64,000 nucleotides of DNA from Candidatus Versatilivorator sp. (GCA_965207735.1 OZ242296.1:704001-768000); one strand, 5' to 3'; shown: positions 17,270 through 35,922, counted from the stretch's first letter. Notes: a model not told the origin generated them from the sequence alone. A program made the numbers and translations.

Positions 17270-17362
17270 TTTGCTGCCGCCGCCTACGCGGCTCGACACC
17301 CATAGGCGACGTTTCCCTGGGCTGACGCCCACGGCTAAGTGCTGCCGCGGCTTCGCCGCTCT
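17270..17362. repeat. REP-like palindromic repeat (intact copy)
   Basis: Reverse complement closely matches 30016-30102; hairpins GCGGCGAAGCCGC, TGGGCGTCAGCCCA, GCCGCGTAGGCGGC. Confidence 0.75.
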
Positions 17363-25656: not shown

Positions 25657-27651
25657 GTAGAGTCGAGGGGAGGCGCGCCGGCCTTAGATCGAGGGAGTCG
25701 CTGTTGCCGGCGGCTTTCGCCACTCGCCGGTGCCTCAATCTCGTTCCTCGCTGCGTTTCCTCGCCCCCGCTCGTCAAACCGGACGTGCGGTTTTCCCGCA
25801 TCCGGCTTTCAGTCAAGATCATGCCTTCGCCCTCGGAAGGCTCTGTGGCTTCGACCCCAGGCAAGTGAGTCCATAGGTTTTCCATAGTCTCTCGTCCGAG
25901 AAGCGCACACTCCCCCCGGTCCTCACCTTGTGCTTCCGACAGAGCCACTGACGCAGCCGCCCGCCCGCGTGGCGGTCGATCGCTCGGTAGGCCGGGCTCA
26001 CCTGCCCCAGAACGAAGTAGTTCGCCCACCCGGTCATCGCCCGGTTCAGGTGTTCTACCATCTGTCCTCGAAGCAGCGTCCCGTTCCTCGGCGCCGTCCA
26101 CTCGCTGATCTTGCGGCAGATGCTCTGGACGCTCGCCTGGCTGGGTCGTGTGCCGATGTAGGCTCCTTTCCCTTTGGGGCGATAGTTGCGTCCGATGCGA
26201 TATCCCAGAAACCCCATCGGTTCCTCCGGACACCGCAAGCATCGGGTCTTCCGCTCGTTGACCGGTAGCTTCAGCTCCTCCATGATCCGCTTGACCGCCG
26301 TCAGCATCTCTGCCGCCGGTGCCCTGCCGAGTACACGGAAGTCATCCGCATAGTTGACGATCTCCGCACAGAAGCGCCGGGCATATCCCAGCACCTTCCA
26401 GCCCAAAACGAAGCGCCGCATGTAGAGATTGCTGAGCAACGGTGAGATCGGGGCTCCTTGCGGTGTCCCCTTCCGCTCCCGGCGCCCTCGGTTCCGGCGG
26501 CGTCTGCCACCCTTCCCGTCGTCCTCCTCCACCGGCATCTCCAGCCATGCCTTGATGAGCTTGAGCATCCTCCCGTCACTCACGCGCCGGGCAATGCTTC
26601 GAATCAGCTCCGCATGCGGAATCTCGCCGAAGTAGTTGGACAGGTCGCCGTCAACCACCTCCTGGTAACCCCTTTGCAGGAGTTCATGCACGCGTTTGAC
26701 CGCGTCGTTGGCACTCCGCCCCCGCCGATAGCCATATTGCTCCGGTTGCAGGTCCGCTTCGAAGATCGGCTCCAACACCAGCAAAGCCGCCGTCTGCGCT
26801 ACCCGGTCCCGTATGCAGGGTATGCCCAAAGGCCGGAACTTGCCGGGCTGTTTCTTCGGGATCAGCACCTGCCGCACCGGCTTCGGTACGTAGGTTCCTT
26901 CCCTCAGGTCCCGCGCCAGTTCCCCCAGCCAGCCCTCCACCCCATACGCCTCGATGTCCTTGAAGCCCTCCCCGTCCACCCCGGCCGACCCGCCGTTTCG
27001 GCGTACCTGTGCCCAGGCTTCCTTCAGAAAGTCCTCTCGCCACACCTTGTCCGACAGCGCATGAAACCGCCGCTTGGGGTCCTCCTTCGCTTTCGCATGT
27101 AGCATGGTCTGGAATTTCCGAACCCCCTCTGACCCTGTTAGACTCTTGTCAGTGGCCACGCCTTGCCTCCTTTCCATGCTGCTCTCAACTCAGGGTCCCT
27201 TCCCTCCACCGGCGTTACCCGGCTTCTCCGGTACTACCGACCCATCCGCCACCCTGACGGCCCGGCCTGCCCCTCGCGGGGTCCCGGTTGATGTGTGCCG
27301 CATCTCCCCCAGGGCTTCCCGTGTTGCTGCCTTCTTCCCCTTCCATGCGTGCCAGCGTCACTACCCCGACGGAAGCGGATCGGTGCCCGCGTCGCTCTCT
27401 TCCCCATCCGCCAACGGCCTTCCCCTAAAGACAGGAGGGTCGGCTTCCGTATTGTCCGTTTCGAGGCCTGCTCGACGTTCACTCGCGTTCCGGCCCGCAT
27501 GCTCGCTGAGCCGCCCTTGGCGGCCCTTGACCCCAGAGTGCTTCAGACCATTTCGTTACCTCCATGATCCGCCCTGGCTGCTACCAACCGGAGCGACAGT
27601 TGTTGGGCGGGGTTCGCACCCGCCAGAAGAAGGCGCCTTTCCACGGCGCAC
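25657..27651 (-). mobile_element. complete group II intron (ribozyme plus IEP)
   Basis: 5' GTGCGCCGTGG at 27651; domain V AAGCCGGATGCGGGAAAACCGCACGTCCGGTTT (AGC triad, ~25776-25808); 3' ...CTCTAC at 25657. The flanks rejoin to the intact repeat ccacgaaggggca|cgaagaacgacg. Confidence 0.93.
25819..27177 (-). CDS. ltrA: group II intron reverse transcriptase/maturase, no endonuclease domain
   Basis: RT0 NGGSAGVDG, RPLGIPCIRDRVAQ, QYGYR, DLSNYF, GTPQGAPISPLLSNLY, YADD, FLGY, domain X GWANYF; ends without an HNH domain. Confidence 0.95.
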   Translation of the reverse strand: MERRQGVATDKSLTGSEGVRKFQTMLHAKAKEDPKRRFHALSDKVWREDFLKEAWAQVRRNGGSAGVDGEGFKDIEAYGVEGWLGELARDLREGTYVPKPVRQVLIPKKQPGKFRPLGIPCIRDRVAQTAALLVLEPIFEADLQPEQYGYRRGRSANDAVKRVHELLQRGYQEVVDGDLSNYFGEIPHAELIRSIARRVSDGRMLKLIKAWLEMPVEEDDGKGGRRRRNRGRRERKGTPQGAPISPLLSNLYMRRFVLGWKVLGYARRFCAEIVNYADDFRVLGRAPAAEMLTAVKRIMEELKLPVNERKTRCLRCPEEPMGFLGYRIGRNYRPKGKGAYIGTRPSQASVQSICRKISEWTAPRNGTLLRGQMVEHLNRAMTGWANYFVLGQVSPAYRAIDRHAGGRLRQWLCRKHKVRTGGSVRFSDERLWKTYGLTCLGSKPQSLPRAKA

Positions 27652-29989: not shown

Positions 29990-30102
29990 CCTGGGCGTCA
30001 GCCCGGGGTTCCAATAGAGCGGCGAAGCCGCGGCAGCAGGTAGCCGTGGGCGTAAGCCCATGGAAAGCGTAGCGCAAGAGTCCGAGCCGCGTAGGCGGCG
30101 AC
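29990..30102. repeat. REP-like palindromic repeat truncated at the left island junction
   Basis: Matches the reverse complement of 17270-17362 up to GGCGGCGAC, then switches abruptly to AT-rich sequence. Confidence 0.75.
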
Positions 30103-30451
30103 CACACCAATTAGATTGTAAACCGTTACATATAATAGACTTAATGTGTCTTGTCCTGTTTCAATCCCCTCATTATATCCCTCTAATTGAACGGGAATCC
30201 ATTGGACCGTTCGGGACGTTGGCGGACAAGTCTTGCGATCGTTCGACCACGGATACTCGTCCTACGGGACCGTCGAGCGGGGTGGCAAGCTGCCCGTGCC
30301 CAGGATCGGAGATATCGGGTTGTGAACATCCTCCAGACTTGCCCTTCTCGGCCTTCTGGACCATTTGTGGTCTGCTGCTCTTCGGGGGTCTCATCGATGG
30401 GGGCGCGTAGCCAAGAGCCGACGTTGAGGGGCGGCTGGGTGCGGAGGAGCT

Positions 30452-30635
30452 GGAGCCGTTGACGGGCTTCGGGAGAGCCGCGGATATGAAGTGGAACACG
30501 ATGCAACATAAGACACACCGTAACACATAAAGCAACATTCAGATTACGAAGCTACACGGGGATACACTCATCCAGCATAAGCGCGAAAGGGCGCCCTGAG
30601 GCCTTCCTGCAGGATAATTTGGACGGGAGCGACCC
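30452..30635 (+). repeat. ~185-bp diverged direct repeat, copy 1 (upstream of cargo gene)
   Basis: Colinear with 33319-33503: cgttgacggg..gggagag..gaagtggaacacg...acactcatcc...aaagggcgccc...gggagcgaccc. Confidence 0.85.
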
Positions 30636-30664
30636 TTGACGGCGCGGGGCGACGCTGTTACCAA
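30636..30664 (+). promoter_or_regulatory. putative promoter of the cargo gene
   Basis: TTGACG-17 bp-TACCAA with TG extension, immediately after repeat copy 1. Confidence 0.45.
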
Positions 30665-30797
30665 AGCGATAGCCCGCGCCTGATCCAGAGCTAGGGATGC
30701 GGAAAGCGCAGCCTGGCTGGGAAAGCTCAACGAAAGCTCAACGATTGTAGTAATATTTATGGGAATTATTACCAATTCAAATACTTTCGGAGGAAAG

Positions 30798-33260
30798 GTG
30801 ACACGATTCATCTCTACCTGCTCCATGGCGGTTGGGGGCCTTGGCGCATTCCTTCTGCTAGGGGCCGGCTTTCAGCCCCTACAGGCGCAGGATAACGATC
30901 AGATCTATTACTTCCCGCATCTTGCCGTGGGAGCCGGCTGGCAAACCACGATTACCTATATCAACTACTCCCCGGCGGAGGTGACCTGCCAAACCGATTT
31001 CCTCTCCGATGACGGGACTCCGCTGATGGTCTCGTTTGCAGAACTGGGAAGGGTTGTGAGCCGGACCGACGTTCTACCACCCGGGGGGGCGGTTCACCAG
31101 GAGACCAACGTTGAGCTGAGCACTCCGCTTGCGCCCGGCTGGGCGAGAGGCAACTGCTCCGGGCCGGTGAAGGCCAGCCTTCTATTTCGTCGATACAACA
31201 GCGAAGGGGTGCCCATCGGGGAAGCTGCAGTCAATGCGACGACGCTTCCGACCACCGGGTTTGTCACCTTCGCCGAACAGGGAGTTGACCAATTTGGGAC
31301 CGGAGTGGCCTATGCCAACCCTTCAGCCGTAGCGGCCCTCGTCACCTTTACGGCCAGGGACGGGGCGGGGCAGACGCTGGCCAGCGTTAGTCACAGTCTG
31401 CCGCCGGGAGGACATGGTTCGCAAAACATGGTGGATCTTTTTGGTCTCACCAGCTTTAGCGGATCGCTCGAAGTCACTTCCACGGAGCCCATCGTTAGCC
31501 TGTCGCTTAATTTCGAAGCCGATCCCGTCTTCTCCTCTTTGCCTCCAGGTGAACTGGATACTTCCTCGCAGGGATCGGCTACGTATTATTTCCCACATCT
31601 TGCCGTAGGAGCGAGTTGGCAAACCACGATTACCTATATCAACTACTCCCCGCAGGAGGTGACCTGCCGGACCGACTTCATTTCGGATCATGGAAGTCCG
31701 CTGACAGTCTTGTTTCCGAGACTGGGAGCGGTTGTGAGTCGGACCGACGTTCTACCACCCGAGGGGGCGGTTCACCAGGAGACCAACGTTGAACTGAGCA
31801 CTCCGCTTGCGCCCGGCTGGGCGAGAGGCAACTGCTCCGGGCCGGTGAAGGCCAGCCTTCTATTTCGTCGATACAACAGCGAAGGGGCGCCCATCGGGGA
31901 AGCTGCAGTCAATGCGACGACGCTTCCGACCACCGGGTTTGTCACCTTTGCCGAACAGGGAGTTGACCAATTTGGGACCGGAGTGGCCTATGCCAACCCT
32001 TCAGCCGTAGCGGCCCTCGTCACCTTTACGGCCAGGGACGGGGCGGGGCAGACGCTGGCCAGCGTCAGTCACAGTCTGCCGCCGGGAGGACATGGTTCGC
32101 AAAACATGGTGGATCTTTTTGGTCTCACCAGCTTTAGCGGATCGCTCGAAGTCACTTCCACGGAGCCCATCGTTAGCCTGTCGCTTAATTTCGAAGCCGA
32201 TCCCGTCTTCTCTTCCTTGCCTCCGGGTGAAACTCCGGGGCTGGAGAACCGGGAGCTGCACCACAACGTCATAGTGCGCGTTGTGCGAGTGACGCCGGAT
32301 TGGCACGGATACGTCATCCGTGGCGGTTGGCCCAGCGCCGTCCCGGTCAAGGAAAGCGACGTCCTCAAGTACTTCGAGGTCGCCATTTGGGAGGAGACAA
32401 TGTCGATTCACTTCTATGAATTCGACAACGACTTCGATCCTTACGGGTTTGACCGCACGCCCGAGCAAGTGACCGCTCACCGCGAGAGCTACACCATCCT
32501 GCGTGTAGACGGCATGCCCGGTCCCTGGACCGAAGCCAGAAGCCGGTTTATCAAACGGGCGTTCGCAGACTTCGTCTCCATCCTGACGAAGCGGTACCCG
32601 GACTCGGATCACCACCTGATGTACAACGGGCACGGCGGACCGGGAGGTCGGCTCTTTGCCGCACAGCTGACGTATGGCGACGCCGATGATCTTCTAGCGA
32701 ACTGGACCCGTGCCTTGGGCCGGCCGCTGGGTGTGATCGACATGGGAGGCCCGTGTAACAAAGGGTCTTTTTCGGACTTGGAGAACTTTTGTTCGTACGC
32801 GCGGTACTATGTTGCGTCGGATCTGCCCAACGGTGGATACACGATGGACGACTGGACGTACGAGAAATTCCTAGAGACCGATCCAGACTCGCAATACCAT
32901 AGGTTATTTGCCGAAAATTCGACGTTGAAGGAGGCACTCCTTGGCCGCATCGCCATCAAGAGGCGGGCCTACGAGTACTCGCGCATCAACATGACGGAGT
33001 CGAGGACGCAGCAGGCCAACTACCTCTATTCATGTCGGGAATTCGCCAACTTCGGCCCAGCGTTCCGGACGTTCCTGCGCAGTCAGGATGGCGACTACCG
33101 CATCTCCGACGACCTGTACGATTACATGGCCGCACTCAGAGCAGGTAACGATCTTCCCGTACGCTTCGACGATGTCTTCGTGCACCGTGCGGACAACCGG
33201 GATTTCTTTGAGTGGGAGCCTGGCGCCAACGGCATGCTCATGCCGGATCCGACCCGCTAA
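30798..33260 (+). CDS. secreted protein: signal peptide, two tandem ~216-aa beta-rich repeats, and a C-terminal clostripain-like (clan CD) cysteine peptidase domain
   Basis: GGAGG RBS with GTG at 30798 (alternative ATG 30759); LQA|QD cleavage site; duplication 30906-31553 / 31584-32231 (678-bp offset); YPDSDHHLMYNGHGG and LGVIDMGGPC are consistent with a His-Cys dyad. Confidence 0.8.
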   Translation: MTRFISTCSMAVGGLGAFLLLGAGFQPLQAQDNDQIYYFPHLAVGAGWQTTITYINYSPAEVTCQTDFLSDDGTPLMVSFAELGRVVSRTDVLPPGGAVHQETNVELSTPLAPGWARGNCSGPVKASLLFRRYNSEGVPIGEAAVNATTLPTTGFVTFAEQGVDQFGTGVAYANPSAVAALVTFTARDGAGQTLASVSHSLPPGGHGSQNMVDLFGLTSFSGSLEVTSTEPIVSLSLNFEADPVFSSLPPGELDTSSQGSATYYFPHLAVGASWQTTITYINYSPQEVTCRTDFISDHGSPLTVLFPRLGAVVSRTDVLPPEGAVHQETNVELSTPLAPGWARGNCSGPVKASLLFRRYNSEGAPIGEAAVNATTLPTTGFVTFAEQGVDQFGTGVAYANPSAVAALVTFTARDGAGQTLASVSHSLPPGGHGSQNMVDLFGLTSFSGSLEVTSTEPIVSLSLNFEADPVFSSLPPGETPGLENRELHHNVIVRVVRVTPDWHGYVIRGGWPSAVPVKESDVLKYFEVAIWEETMSIHFYEFDNDFDPYGFDRTPEQVTAHRESYTILRVDGMPGPWTEARSRFIKRAFADFVSILTKRYPDSDHHLMYNGHGGPGGRLFAAQLTYGDADDLLANWTRALGRPLGVIDMGGPCNKGSFSDLENFCSYARYYVASDLPNGGYTMDDWTYEKFLETDPDSQYHRLFAENSTLKEALLGRIAIKRRAYEYSRINMTESRTQQANYLYSCREFANFGPAFRTFLRSQDGDYRISDDLYDYMAALRAGNDLPVRFDDVFVHRADNRDFFEWEPGANGMLMPDPTR

Positions 33261-33318
33261 GCCCACGCTACCCAGCAGGCCGAACTCCTCCGACGGCCGT
33301 GATGGACAGTACGGCGCA

Positions 33319-33503
33319 GGAGACGTTGACGGGTTTCGGGAGAGACGCGGATTAGAAGTGGAACACGGTGCGACATAAGATGCACAATAACACATCAAGC
33401 AACAATCAGGTTACAACGCTACACGAGGCCACACTCATCCACCATGAGCGCCAAAGGGCGCCCGCTGGCCTTCCCGCAGGGATCAATGTGGAGGGAGCGA
33501 CCC
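33319..33503 (+). repeat. ~185-bp diverged direct repeat, copy 2 (downstream of cargo gene)
   Basis: Colinear with 30452-30635. Confidence 0.85.
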
Positions 33504-33667
33504 CCACAGGGGAGGGAAGGTGGTGGATTTTGGCGTGCACCACCTAACCCTGCCCGGTGCCGCACCAGCGGTCAAAAAGAGGGGGTCGCTCCCTCCACTT
33601 CCTCCCCCTCCTGTGCGGCGCCACGACGCGCCGTGCGAGGCGGGGACGCGCGGCGCCGGCGCCGCAC
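33488..33667 (+). ncRNA. candidate structured RNA/ssDNA motif, copy A
   Basis: 18-bp perfect closing stem 33488-33505 / 33581-33598 with two internal hairpins, then a second domain closed by GTGCGGCGCC / GGCGCCGCAC. Confidence 0.45.
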
Positions 33668-34165
33668 TACGCTTTGCCACAGAGGACTCGGGGAATCCGT
33701 GCCAACCCGCTTCCAATGCGGGTTTCCGGGCACAACCTGGACCACAACGGCGAGAACTCCGCCCTCTGAGAGAGGAGCGTTGGGGTCGTCAAAAGCATGA
33801 GCCACTTGGTGCGCCACCTGTGTGAGCCACCCCCCGTCTGAAAGGTGGCCACCCATACGACGCCACGTCCTTGACCCCGGGAGGCGGAAATCGTCGATCA
33901 TTTCGCGGCCGTTCGAGGCCAGGTCTTCCTGCTCCCATTGGTCGATCTTCTCCATGACGACACTGAGGCCGTCATGGCGTTCGACGGTGTCCTGACCCCT
34001 GAATCCGCGAGCTTTGTGGGGGGCTGGCTGGACTTTCTCACTCCCTGGCATAGCAGAACACTCCGGAACGCCTCCTGGACCGATTTCCGTCTCAGGGACC
34101 GCAGGGACCGCCGCCTGTGGGGAAACCGGAATGGCCGGCTCGCTCAGCGGTCCTAGGGTCGCCAT

Positions 34166-34335
34166 GCGGAGAGAGCGACCTCCGAGCGGGGGCAAAGGGT
34201 GTCCGGACCCTTGGCCACCTTTGCCCTCCTCCGTGGCGCGCGAGCGCCGAAAAAGGGCGCTCTCACCGCCAGCACCTGTCTCGTGTGGCGCGCTGACGCG
34301 CCGGGCGAGGCGGGGACAGCGAGGCCGGCGCCGCA
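34166..34335 (+). ncRNA. candidate structured RNA/ssDNA motif, copy B
   Basis: Same helix order as copy A with different stem sequences; GCGA tetraloop; 22/23-nt identical core GACGCGCCGNGCGAGGCGGGGAC. Confidence 0.45.
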
Positions 34336-34352
34336 ACGCGTAGTGCCGGGGA

Positions 34353-34430
34353 GCCAGCCTACCCAATGTAATACATTGGGGCTGGCGAGGGGCTCCGCCC
34401 CTTCGAACCCCCGGCCGGGGGAACTCCCCC
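34353..34430. other. oriT-like nested palindromes
   Basis: CCCAATGTA-A-TACATTGGG inside GCCAGC / GCTGGC, next to AGGGGC-TCC-GCCCCT and GGGGG-AACT-CCCCC hairpins. Confidence 0.4.
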
Positions 34431-34440
34431 TTGCCCCCCA

Positions 34441-35721
34441 TCATCCCCCCCGCTCCCTTGTCCCTCTGCCGGGAACTTCGAGCCTGGCTCTCACCCTGGC
34501 TTGCCCCGGGCAACCGATCCCCTGGGCCAGGTAACGCGTCCAGTCGTCCATCAGGACACGCCGGCGCTCGAACAGGTCGGAGCGGGCATAGGCCGCCTCG
34601 ACCCGGTTGCGGACCACATGCGCCAGGGCCGCCTCGATCACCTCCCGGGGATGGTCGGTCTCCTCTCCCGCCCAGTCCCGAAAGCTGGATCTGAACCCGT
34701 GCGGCACGGCTGCAATCCCCTGCTCGCGGACCAGCCACCGCAGCTCCTTGTCACTGAGCGGCTTCCCTTGCCCACGGGTGAACACCAGAGGACCGGCTCC
34801 TTTGCCCAGGGTCCCTGCCGCCTCGAGAATCTCCAGGGCACGGCCACAAAGCGGCACCCGATGCTTCCGGTTCGCCTTCATCCGACTGGCCGGGACGGTC
34901 CATACACCAGCGTCCCGATCAATCTCCTCCCACTCGGCCCAGCGCACTTCACTCCACCTGGCCGCCGTCAGCACCAGGAACTCGAAGGCCAGCTTGACCA
35001 CCTCCGGCGCCGTCGCTGCCTGCACCGTCCGGATGGCCGCAGCCACCTCCCGATGAGGCAAGGCCCGCATGTGCTCGGTAACGTCCTGCTGGGGACCCAG
35101 GACCGGGCCGATCCTGTCGCAGGGGTTGTCAAGGCGGTACTCCATGGCTACGGCCCATTCCAGGACCGCCCGCAGGCGCTGGCGCACCCGCCGGGCGCTG
35201 GAGGCCTTCCGGTGCCAGATGGGGGTGAGGATCTCAAGCAGATCGGCGCTGGTGACCTCGGAGACCGGCATCTTGCCGATGCGGGGGAAGGCGAACCGCC
35301 TCAGGCTGGACAGCCACTCGCGGTGGTGACGCCGGCCGCGCCAGCCGTCCCGCTTCTGTTCCAGCACACGCGAAGCGGCTTCGGCGAAGGTGGGGATGCC
35401 CTCGGCGCGCCGCTTCTCGGCAAGCGGGTCTCCGCCCTCACGAGCGAGCTTGCGGTTAGCCAGGGCCTTCTCCCTGGCCTCGGCCAGGGAGACCAGAGCA
35501 ACGCTGCCGAGACCGAGCTCCCGGCGACGGCCACGGACGACCAGGCGTTGAATCCAACTGCGGGTTCCGGTAGGCTGGACGAAGAGGTAGAGGCCGTTGC
35601 CGTCGGCGTGTCTTCCGGGCGGAGCGGAGCGCAGGAAGGCGGCCGAGAGGGCGTTGCTGGGGTGACGGCCGGTGGGTTTGGTTTTAGGTCGGACAAAAGC
35701 GAAGTCCGTTACAGTAACCAT
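34441..35721 (-). CDS. P4-family tyrosine integrase with N-terminal arm-binding domain
   Basis: DGNGLYLFV..GTRSW..RRELGLG arm domain; catalytic R (TAARWSE), K (RMKA), HGFR, LAH and AAY all present. Confidence 0.95.
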   Translation of the reverse strand: MVTVTDFAFVRPKTKPTGRHPSNALSAAFLRSAPPGRHADGNGLYLFVQPTGTRSWIQRLVVRGRRRELGLGSVALVSLAEAREKALANRKLAREGGDPLAEKRRAEGIPTFAEAASRVLEQKRDGWRGRRHHREWLSSLRRFAFPRIGKMPVSEVTSADLLEILTPIWHRKASSARRVRQRLRAVLEWAVAMEYRLDNPCDRIGPVLGPQQDVTEHMRALPHREVAAAIRTVQAATAPEVVKLAFEFLVLTAARWSEVRWAEWEEIDRDAGVWTVPASRMKANRKHRVPLCGRALEILEAAGTLGKGAGPLVFTRGQGKPLSDKELRWLVREQGIAAVPHGFRSSFRDWAGEETDHPREVIEAALAHVVRNRVEAAYARSDLFERRRVLMDDWTRYLAQGIGCPGQARVRARLEVPGRGTRERGG

Positions 35722-35727
35722 CCCCCC

Positions 35728-35756
35728 ATTATATGGGGGATGGCAGTGGATTGCAA
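35728..35756 (-). promoter_or_regulatory. integrase promoter, probably leaderless
   Basis: TTGCAA-17 bp-TATAAT, with the ATG 6 nt after the -10; lies within the palindrome CCATCCCCC...GGGGGATGG. Confidence 0.7.
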
Positions 35757-35922
35757 GGGATGTTGGTGGCAAGACAAGCCACGGCAGGACTTATATAAGA
35801 CACTCATAACTAAGACCGTTATAGACACTAATGGACGGCGCTAGACATCACTGGATTTTATATGGACGTTGCGGCGGCGACAGCAATCTACTCGACCGCC
35901 GCAACGGTTCCCGGCCGTGGTC

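Follow-up and report, generated by a model that had tools for sequence, protein, structure and literature searches.

The 5.8-kb element at positions 30094-35881 of the window (the whole stretch analysed, 64,000 nucleotides from Candidatus Versatilivorator sp., genome G000) belongs to a group of about 25 related islands on the same chromosome, which together account for 7.5% of the genome. Sixteen of them, this element included, sit at one 7-bp site in a dispersed palindromic repeat; the element probably excises, re-integrates and moves from an origin of transfer (oriT) with helpers acting in trans. It would excise as a circle and then re-integrate at other copies of the repeat by lambda-type recombination between attP (GACGTTGC-GGCGGCG-ACTACA) and attB (GCCGCGWA-GGCGGCG-RCAGCA), and transfer from cell to cell would start at the oriT, with relaxase and mating pore supplied in trans. 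Copies with a deleted integrase would likewise be mobilised in trans, and elements would grow as sister clades whose targets lie within element DNA insert into them and become nested.

Ends, core and gene content of the element

The 9-bp direct repeat GGCGGCGAC at 30094-30102 and 35873-35881, the AT-rich segments just inside both ends and the intact copy of the target repeat near 17270-17362 all read as an earlier note on this DNA had described them. In the relative G002 the flanks align at 96% identity, the left one up to 30102 and the right one from 35873, with a 9-nt overlap. The empty site holds just one copy of the repeat, with one core base different (GGCCGCGAC) and the left half of the host repeat retained; it breaks at the core, and a break elsewhere, which the note had named as counting against its reading, was not seen. 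The whole repeat cluster between nadA and the next gene is absent from more distant relatives (L003 and L007-L010), so the repeat arrived before the element did. At 25819-27177 (minus strand), upstream of the nadA region, lies a gene for a group II intron reverse transcriptase/maturase, which is missing from the matching stretch in several relatives.

The crossover core of nine bases proposed in the note was not borne out, as base-8 statistics point to an exchanged core of 7 bp (GGCGGCG), the usual overlap length for lambda-family enzymes. In type A, the class of this element, base 8 is A in all 16 left ends and G in 11 of the 15 right ends, and the two alleles are equally frequent (29/29) in 58 intact sites. 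The right-end base thus follows the host allele, every left end being A, and base 0 differs between left and right ends; the 7-bp core is derived from these two patterns. The nine-base overlap was rejected on the base-8 statistics over left ends, right ends and intact sites, an overlap at bases 2-8 because the G allele occurs in no left end, and the right-junction hairpin as the true end because its second arm is host flank in the empty allele. In the reciprocal case, a 26.7-kb element of G002 whose site is empty in G000, the 7-bp overlap is common to both; base 8 is A at its left end and G in the target and at the right end. When seven type-A elements of G000 were compared with G002, only three showed the repeat kept and the element absent, two loci lacked repeat and element alike, and two were uninformative, one of them with inverted flanks. 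The flanks of G000:C1:4505250-4512889 lie about 25 kb apart and inverted in G002, which suggests rearrangement at repeats or att sites.

Table 1. Features of the element and its target in the window
Feature	Position	Strand	Details
Host repeat, left half of split target	30017..30093	+	Hairpin motif, GTAG-type palindrome, GAGCCGCGTA (B arm of attB)
attL core	30094..30102	+	7-bp overlap GGCGGCG at 30094-30100 inside 9-bp direct repeat
Conserved AT-rich left end	30103..30230	+	32 profile matches in genome
168-nt non-coding direct repeat, copy 1	30446..30613	+	83%; flanks cargo
Cargo gene	30759..33260	+	833-aa ORF; likely start GTG 30798
168-nt direct repeat, copy 2	33313..33480	+	Sequence comparison
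Conserved non-coding module, many copies across family	33466..33992		18-bp perfect inverted repeat 33488-33505/33581-33598
Empty target of type-D sister integrase	33467..33484	-	Core CCCTGCGG; occupied at this position in other elements
Likely oriT	34287..34467	+	AGCCAGCCTAC, palindrome, GGGCTGGCGAGGGG motif; core 34352-34413
P4-type tyrosine integrase	34441..35721	-	ORF open to 35772; likely start ATG 35721, 426 aa
Predicted sigma-70 promoter	35722..35756	-	TTGCAA-17-TATAAT, 6 nt upstream of ATG
Conserved right end	35763..35872	+	22 profile matches in genome
attR core, then host-repeat ACAGCA (B' arm)	35873..35885	+	GGCGGCG at 35873-35879; sequence, empty allele
Unoccupied target repeat copy	17270..17362	-	Sequence; genome motif matches

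The gene content given in the note, an intact P4-type integrase and a single cargo ORF, stood (Table 1), as did the absence of tRNA and tmRNA genes (none in the window by ARAGORN). The likely oriT had been overlooked, and with it the description of the element as minimal fell. The integrase has no internal stop and retains the catalytic R-K-H-R-H-Y residues; the domains PF13356 (Arm-DNA-bind_3), PF22022 (Phage_int_M) and PF00589 (Phage_integrase) all score above cut-off. Judged from sequence, the AT-rich left end is likely to hold integrase arm sites, the right end arm sites together with the core-type site GACGTTGC, and the integrase mRNA is likely to be leaderless, starting from the promoter just ahead of the ATG. 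This promoter is found in 10 of 15 type-A right ends and is altered in the five with a deleted integrase. The cargo lies between two 168-nt repeats, which occur as a single copy in sister elements without cargo; in sister elements, nested element remnants form a mosaic and no regular array, and an integron reading of the repeats, though it may hold, gains no support.

The call of a peptidase cargo holds. The C-terminal domain (32244-33257), which has no Pfam sequence match, adopts a clostripain (C11) fold in a structure model with pLDDT 93.5, all seven Foldseek matches at E <= 0.001 being C11 proteases (best 1.5e-8), and protease activity is predicted from it. A word-based search yielded 193 relatives of the domain; His130-Gly and Cys171 are invariant in 56 sequences, the His and Cys codons lying at 32631 and 32754. 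The N-terminus resembles a signal peptide as judged by eye, and two 94%-identical unnamed domains follow at 30906-31553 and 31584-32231. This duplicated domain recurs in exported-looking proteins at 1080582, 1192679, 1527972, 4005986, 4023699 and 5003408, two of the six inside elements, and its Atlas clusters are unnamed and mostly acidobacterial.

The dispersed repeat as attachment site

The integrase has 25 relatives of at least 360 matched residues in its own genome. Of 13 other genomes in the genus, 12 have matches at E <= 1e-60, against none of 17 other genomes of the family; the closest relatives come from records of Ca. Versatilivorator or Versatilivoraceae (Acidobacteriota), bacteria that are sponge symbionts. 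Profiles of the conserved ends detected 32 left and 22 right ends in the genome, of which 16 left and 15 right ends belong to type A and give 15 pairs of 2.1-44.4 kb, with pairing beyond 20 kb resting mostly on position and orientation. The list of 25 elements, three of which have approximate ends, comprises 15 pairs and an orphan of type A, five pairs and an orphan of type B, two pairs of type C and a single free element of type D.

The left ends of type A, 16 in all, lie in one repeat motif with the sequence GCCGCGWA-GGCGGCG, which RCAGC follows in each of the 15 right ends; joined together, the two parts make up the hairpin unit of an intergenic repeat that is modular. Insertion into a dispersed repeat instead of a tRNA was confirmed, as was a family whose attB is an abundant repeat lying mostly between genes, with two of 31 type-A ends in coding sequence according to a crude gene caller. 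Chance does not account for the pattern: the 24-nt site motif has 113 matches in the genome with up to two mismatches (occupied left ends included) and none in one fourth-order Markov control genome. There are 58 good empty type-A sites in the genome, and the 9-mer of the direct repeat alone occurs 1056 times. The nearest of 51 tRNA/tmRNA genes lies 3239 bp from any of 54 element ends.

The comparison of the ends of homologous integrases called for in the note places them neither at tRNAs nor at random sites. No tRNA was found at the integrase-proximal end in 79 homolog loci, nine tRNA genes lying elsewhere in seven of them. Among 40 integrase-proximal ends in relatives, chosen from near-full-length matches within the genus, 16 have the type-A core, one a degenerate copy of the type-A repeat and 15 a type-B site, the rest being type C (three), type E (three) and other (two); ARAGORN detected no tRNA in these 40 stretches. 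In G002 the repeat arm is present in all seven type-A left ends among 13 left ends examined. No clear replichore bias of the target repeat was found. No cognate RAYT was found for it, the one Y1_Tnp match in the genome being flanked by a different repeat; this Y1 (RAYT-like) transposase gene, in the region of G000:C1:2227208, stands amid tandem copies of that other palindromic repeat.

It is also conceivable that a short motif (approximately GGCGGCGRCAGC) alone is recognised and that most of its occurrences happen to fall in repeats, which would make the family a mobilizable transposon of relaxed specificity. In keeping with this, 58 of the 75 free GGCGGCGRCAGC sites have the left arm of the repeat, the B arm is a poor likeness of the core-type consensus, some cores contain mismatches, and a few copies in relatives sit at non-repeat sites (L016, L033). 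However, finding 16 of 16 insertions in the repeat has a probability of about 0.04 under this reading, and T at position -1 occurs in 14/16 occupied against 24/58 free sites (p 0.001), the copies not being fully independent in either comparison. Furthermore, each sister clade has a multi-copy target of its own, type C using the other arm of the hairpin. We regard recognition of the short motif alone as rather unlikely, and have high confidence that the targeting of the repeat is real and well supported.

For excision, the circle (attP) junction pattern was found in none of 14 genus genomes and in no viral contigs. In metagenome contigs the junction was not detected, and a looser pattern gave 52 matches with one true left end and no junctions, a weak test, as only one of the 52 is a family member. 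The family is scarcely represented in the collections searched, and rare forms are lost from assemblies. Neither a circle nor an empty-site joint is among the joints listed for contigs of four runs; one contig joint skips 30451-33320 and may stem from other family copies. No excisionase ORF was seen in the element, the AlpA family having been searched, and the single AlpA match of the genome lies outside all catalogued elements. A link to phages gained no support, the viral contigs giving two weak relatives (43-45%).

The earlier suggestion of variable cassettes was correct, and that of secreted proteins only in part, since restriction, other defence genes and eukaryote-like repeat proteins are carried as well. 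From 202 ORFs of at least 100 aa in 20 stretches, 118 + 26 were scanned against Pfam, and the cargo includes ankyrin, LRR, Sel1 and other exported proteins, restriction-modification, Mrr, MmeI, OLD, DUF4007 and IS. Nine of the 16 ankyrin genes of the genome lie within elements (binomial p 5e-7; paralogs are not independent). The enrichment is marginal for Sel1 genes (3/10, p 0.03) and not significant for LRR genes (3/17, p 0.13). A 1486-aa cargo protein at G000:C1:4241463-4245923 (L060:9064-13524), beside a restriction helicase, has a weak reverse-transcriptase match and is possibly a defence-associated RT.

The likely origin of transfer

The segment at 34287-34467 is 88.5% identical to DNA directly upstream of a mobC-relaxase pair at the locus L150, which holds the one relaxase match of G000, MbeA-like and below the curated cut-off. 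There mobC precedes the relaxase, and the pair is convergent with the adjoining type-D integrase. The motif is also found upstream of mobC in four other genus genomes (L150-L154 in all), in Gemmatimonadota loci, and upstream of mobC in three plasmids, including pAsa3, typed as MOBP mobilizable. An oriT upstream of mobC and relaxase is a known layout (PMC4175270, PMC5935869). On these alignments the segment is likely to be an origin of transfer, and with it the element is better described as a derivative of a mobilizable island than as a bare integrase. As the segment abuts the 3' end of the integrase gene here, with mobC and the relaxase lying in between at L150, the ancestor may have been an element with integrase, mobC and MbeA-like relaxase that later lost its mob genes.

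All 25 oriT-like matches in G000 lie inside elements, and 18 of the 25 elements carry one. No relaxase gene was found in this element, and relaxase matches occur in 5 of 14 genus genomes. VirB4 (mating-pore) proteins have no match in any of the 14 and a coupling protein has a match in one, so that the pore would need to come from a passing element.

These gaps are compatible with the view that the oriT-like segment is a relic and that spread is now only intragenomic, or else relies on vesicles, transformation or phage to pass from cell to cell: no mating-pore gene was found in the genus genomes searched, most of them have no relaxase match, and 7 of the 25 elements do not have the motif. Against this, conservation of the motif among full copies reaches 89-98%, when the similarity of their other non-coding modules is often 70-90%, and compensatory changes occur across phyla in 4 of 12 predicted stem pairs (13 chosen copies). 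Moreover, ColE1-type mob regions normally use the pore of passing conjugative elements, according to the portion of the source available (PMC5935869). We hold the relic reading to be doubtful, and consider mobilisation of these islands in trans to be moderately supported.

Sister clades, known systems and meaning

Type B targets another dispersed repeat (core TGCACRGG) and type C the other arm of the type-A hairpin on the opposite strand. Type D, with an integrase about 64% identical, inserts into a conserved non-coding site within the elements (G000:C1:1013924-1016818, 636440-639335 and 2496217-2498900), and type E, about 71% identical, into the integrase gene of relatives at EFLVL codons (G000:C1:3871650-3885292; L048-L050). 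Other multi-copy motifs serve as targets for homologs about 70% identical in records from Gemmatimonadota, Vicinamibacterales and Aminicenantes. At the level of sequence, target type was shown to follow integrase clade. With 11 target labels placed on a tree built from 104 integrases, 17 changes are required against 68.5 when shuffled (0/200 as low); the labels come from our own patterns and are shared by kin, 13 rows being 'other' (several truncated) and L119 mislabelled, so that the tree shows clustering only.

Further targets were noted among the homologs. A clade of 16, mostly from Gemmatimonadota records (L117, L118, L124, L125, L130-L133, L135, L140-L143, L146, L147, L149), sits at CAGTGACGGT-like motifs, each in a different gene, which are apparently Val-Thr-Val-Thr codons of repeat-rich surface-protein genes. 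In two more clades the insertion site is in the 5' portion of another integrase gene (L112, L120, L122, L126, L136; and L109, L123, L128, L129, L138, L139). The element at G002:C1:539070-557270 (L161, L162) lies within a multi-copy sequence, likely an IS, that is intact in two G000 copies (1665401-1665410, 3251359-3251368).

Nine intact type-A integrases are under purifying selection (mean dN 0.030 and dS 0.198 over 36 pairs; dN/dS about 0.15), and the catalytic residues are intact in 9/9 near-full copies. Five copies have a common internal integrase deletion and the altered promoter in at least three flank contexts; one deleted derivative occupying different flanks suggests mobilisation in trans. 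A few insertions followed by passive multiplication, through MITE-like movement of repeat units or gene conversion, would agree with one composite flank common to about half of the left ends, with the two loci where G002 has neither repeat nor element and with a short G002 element whose right-flank unit recurs at another locus, but this is highly improbable given precise empty sites that retain the repeat, the deleted derivative in different flank types, the selection on the nine integrases and a separate target for each integrase clade.

In the way it works the element resembles a mobilizable island that has only an oriT and a P4-type integrase, minus the tRNA target and the excisionase. P4/CP4-57-type integrase islands are a class found at tRNA/tmRNA genes. 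They have the same domain architecture, a 7-bp overlap and an integrase at one end that is read inward; here, by contrast, the attB is a multi-copy site and not a tRNA/tmRNA 3' end, non-autonomous derivatives occur, and clades insert into the DNA of their own family. Site statistics for such islands are available (PMC12424338).

Integrative mobilizable elements (IMEs) and oriT-only islands such as MGIVflInd1 likewise combine a tyrosine integrase, direct-repeat ends, an oriT without a full transfer system and variable cargo (PMC5704250). The element has its own integrase, precise attL and attR and an empty attB in relatives, and does not encode a relaxase; type IV secretion genes of its own were not found, so that this feature of ICEs is absent. 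In the part of the review available, most IMEs are single-copy, and site-specific ones almost always so, only two of these having been seen in multicopy; low-specificity ones reach 2-6 copies, and the targets listed are gene ends, oriT and AT-rich DNA, with no repeat among them (PMC5704250). Unlike those reviewed, the present family has about 25 sequence-specific copies in dispersed repeats, encodes no excisionase and would use an MbeA-like helper relaxase. IME_oriT of Streptococcus agalactiae has a tyrosine integrase that targets another mobile element, as types D and E do, but it inserts at the nick site of ICEs unrelated to it, whereas here the target is a conserved non-coding site or integrase gene of the same family (PMC5704250). 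RAGE of Orientia tsutsugamushi is similarly amplified and decaying in a host-associated bacterium, with ankyrin-repeat and methyltransferase cargo; as an ICE it has an F-type transfer system, and its integration site could not be identified, in contrast to the precise sites and missing mating pore seen here (PMC10732058).

Neither a DEDD nor a DDE transposase is encoded in the element, the only mobilising enzyme being the tyrosine integrase. REP-targeting insertion sequences share with it the many landing sites offered by dispersed palindromic repeats, but they use IS3 or IS110 enzymes and carry no cargo, whereas the lambda-family integrase here moves up to about 40 kb. IS1397 reportedly belongs to one of these two enzyme families. 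The prophage-like phiRv1 has a large serine recombinase with a dispersed-repeat attB and is usually present once per genome; it resembles the present elements as a site-specific system on a dispersed repeat and differs in the type of recombinase. REP targeting is known for IS1397, IS621 and IS1594 (PMC3184786), repeat flanks of phiRv1 in REP13E12 (PMC1931498) and multi-targeting by serine recombinases (PMC10083194). The word 'integrase' does not occur in the available portion of a paper on GTAG/TIR repeats (PMC3733652). In the open literature searched we found no description of repeat-targeted tyrosine-integrase islands; an earlier mention is possible. As far as its accessible text indicates, at least one integrase-mining pipeline drops attB sites with a multi-copy core (PMC12884075), which may explain why such families go unnoticed.

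With about 60 good empty sites per genome, a sequence-specific integrase reaches transposon-like copy numbers while sparing genes. Between islands bound to a single site and transposons that insert at random, this is a third strategy, in which each genome offers dozens of sites that look safe. As their known targets differ, these close integrases (64-95% identical) provide a natural panel for studying how tyrosine integrases change specificity, and the family is a possible multi-site integration tool. Tentatively, the results taken together may reflect a radiation of repeat-homing elements in sponge-type symbionts, with one integrase lineage retargeted repeatedly to short sequences that are multi-copy in its host (REP-like hairpins, other repeats, codons of repeat-rich surface proteins, IS elements and its own relatives), a relaxase-bearing mobiliser, and exchange of ankyrin and defence genes across phyla. 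If so, a rare relaxase-bearing member would mobilise dozens of oriT-only passengers, and the system would be one of the main ways in which defence genes and host-interaction genes of the ankyrin type are multiplied and exchanged across phyla. The related islands, most of them with a likely oriT, probably act as a shuttle, so far undescribed, that carries genes for host interaction and defence, and the concentration of 9 of 16 ankyrin genes in these elements makes them a testable vehicle for eukaryote-like repeat proteins.
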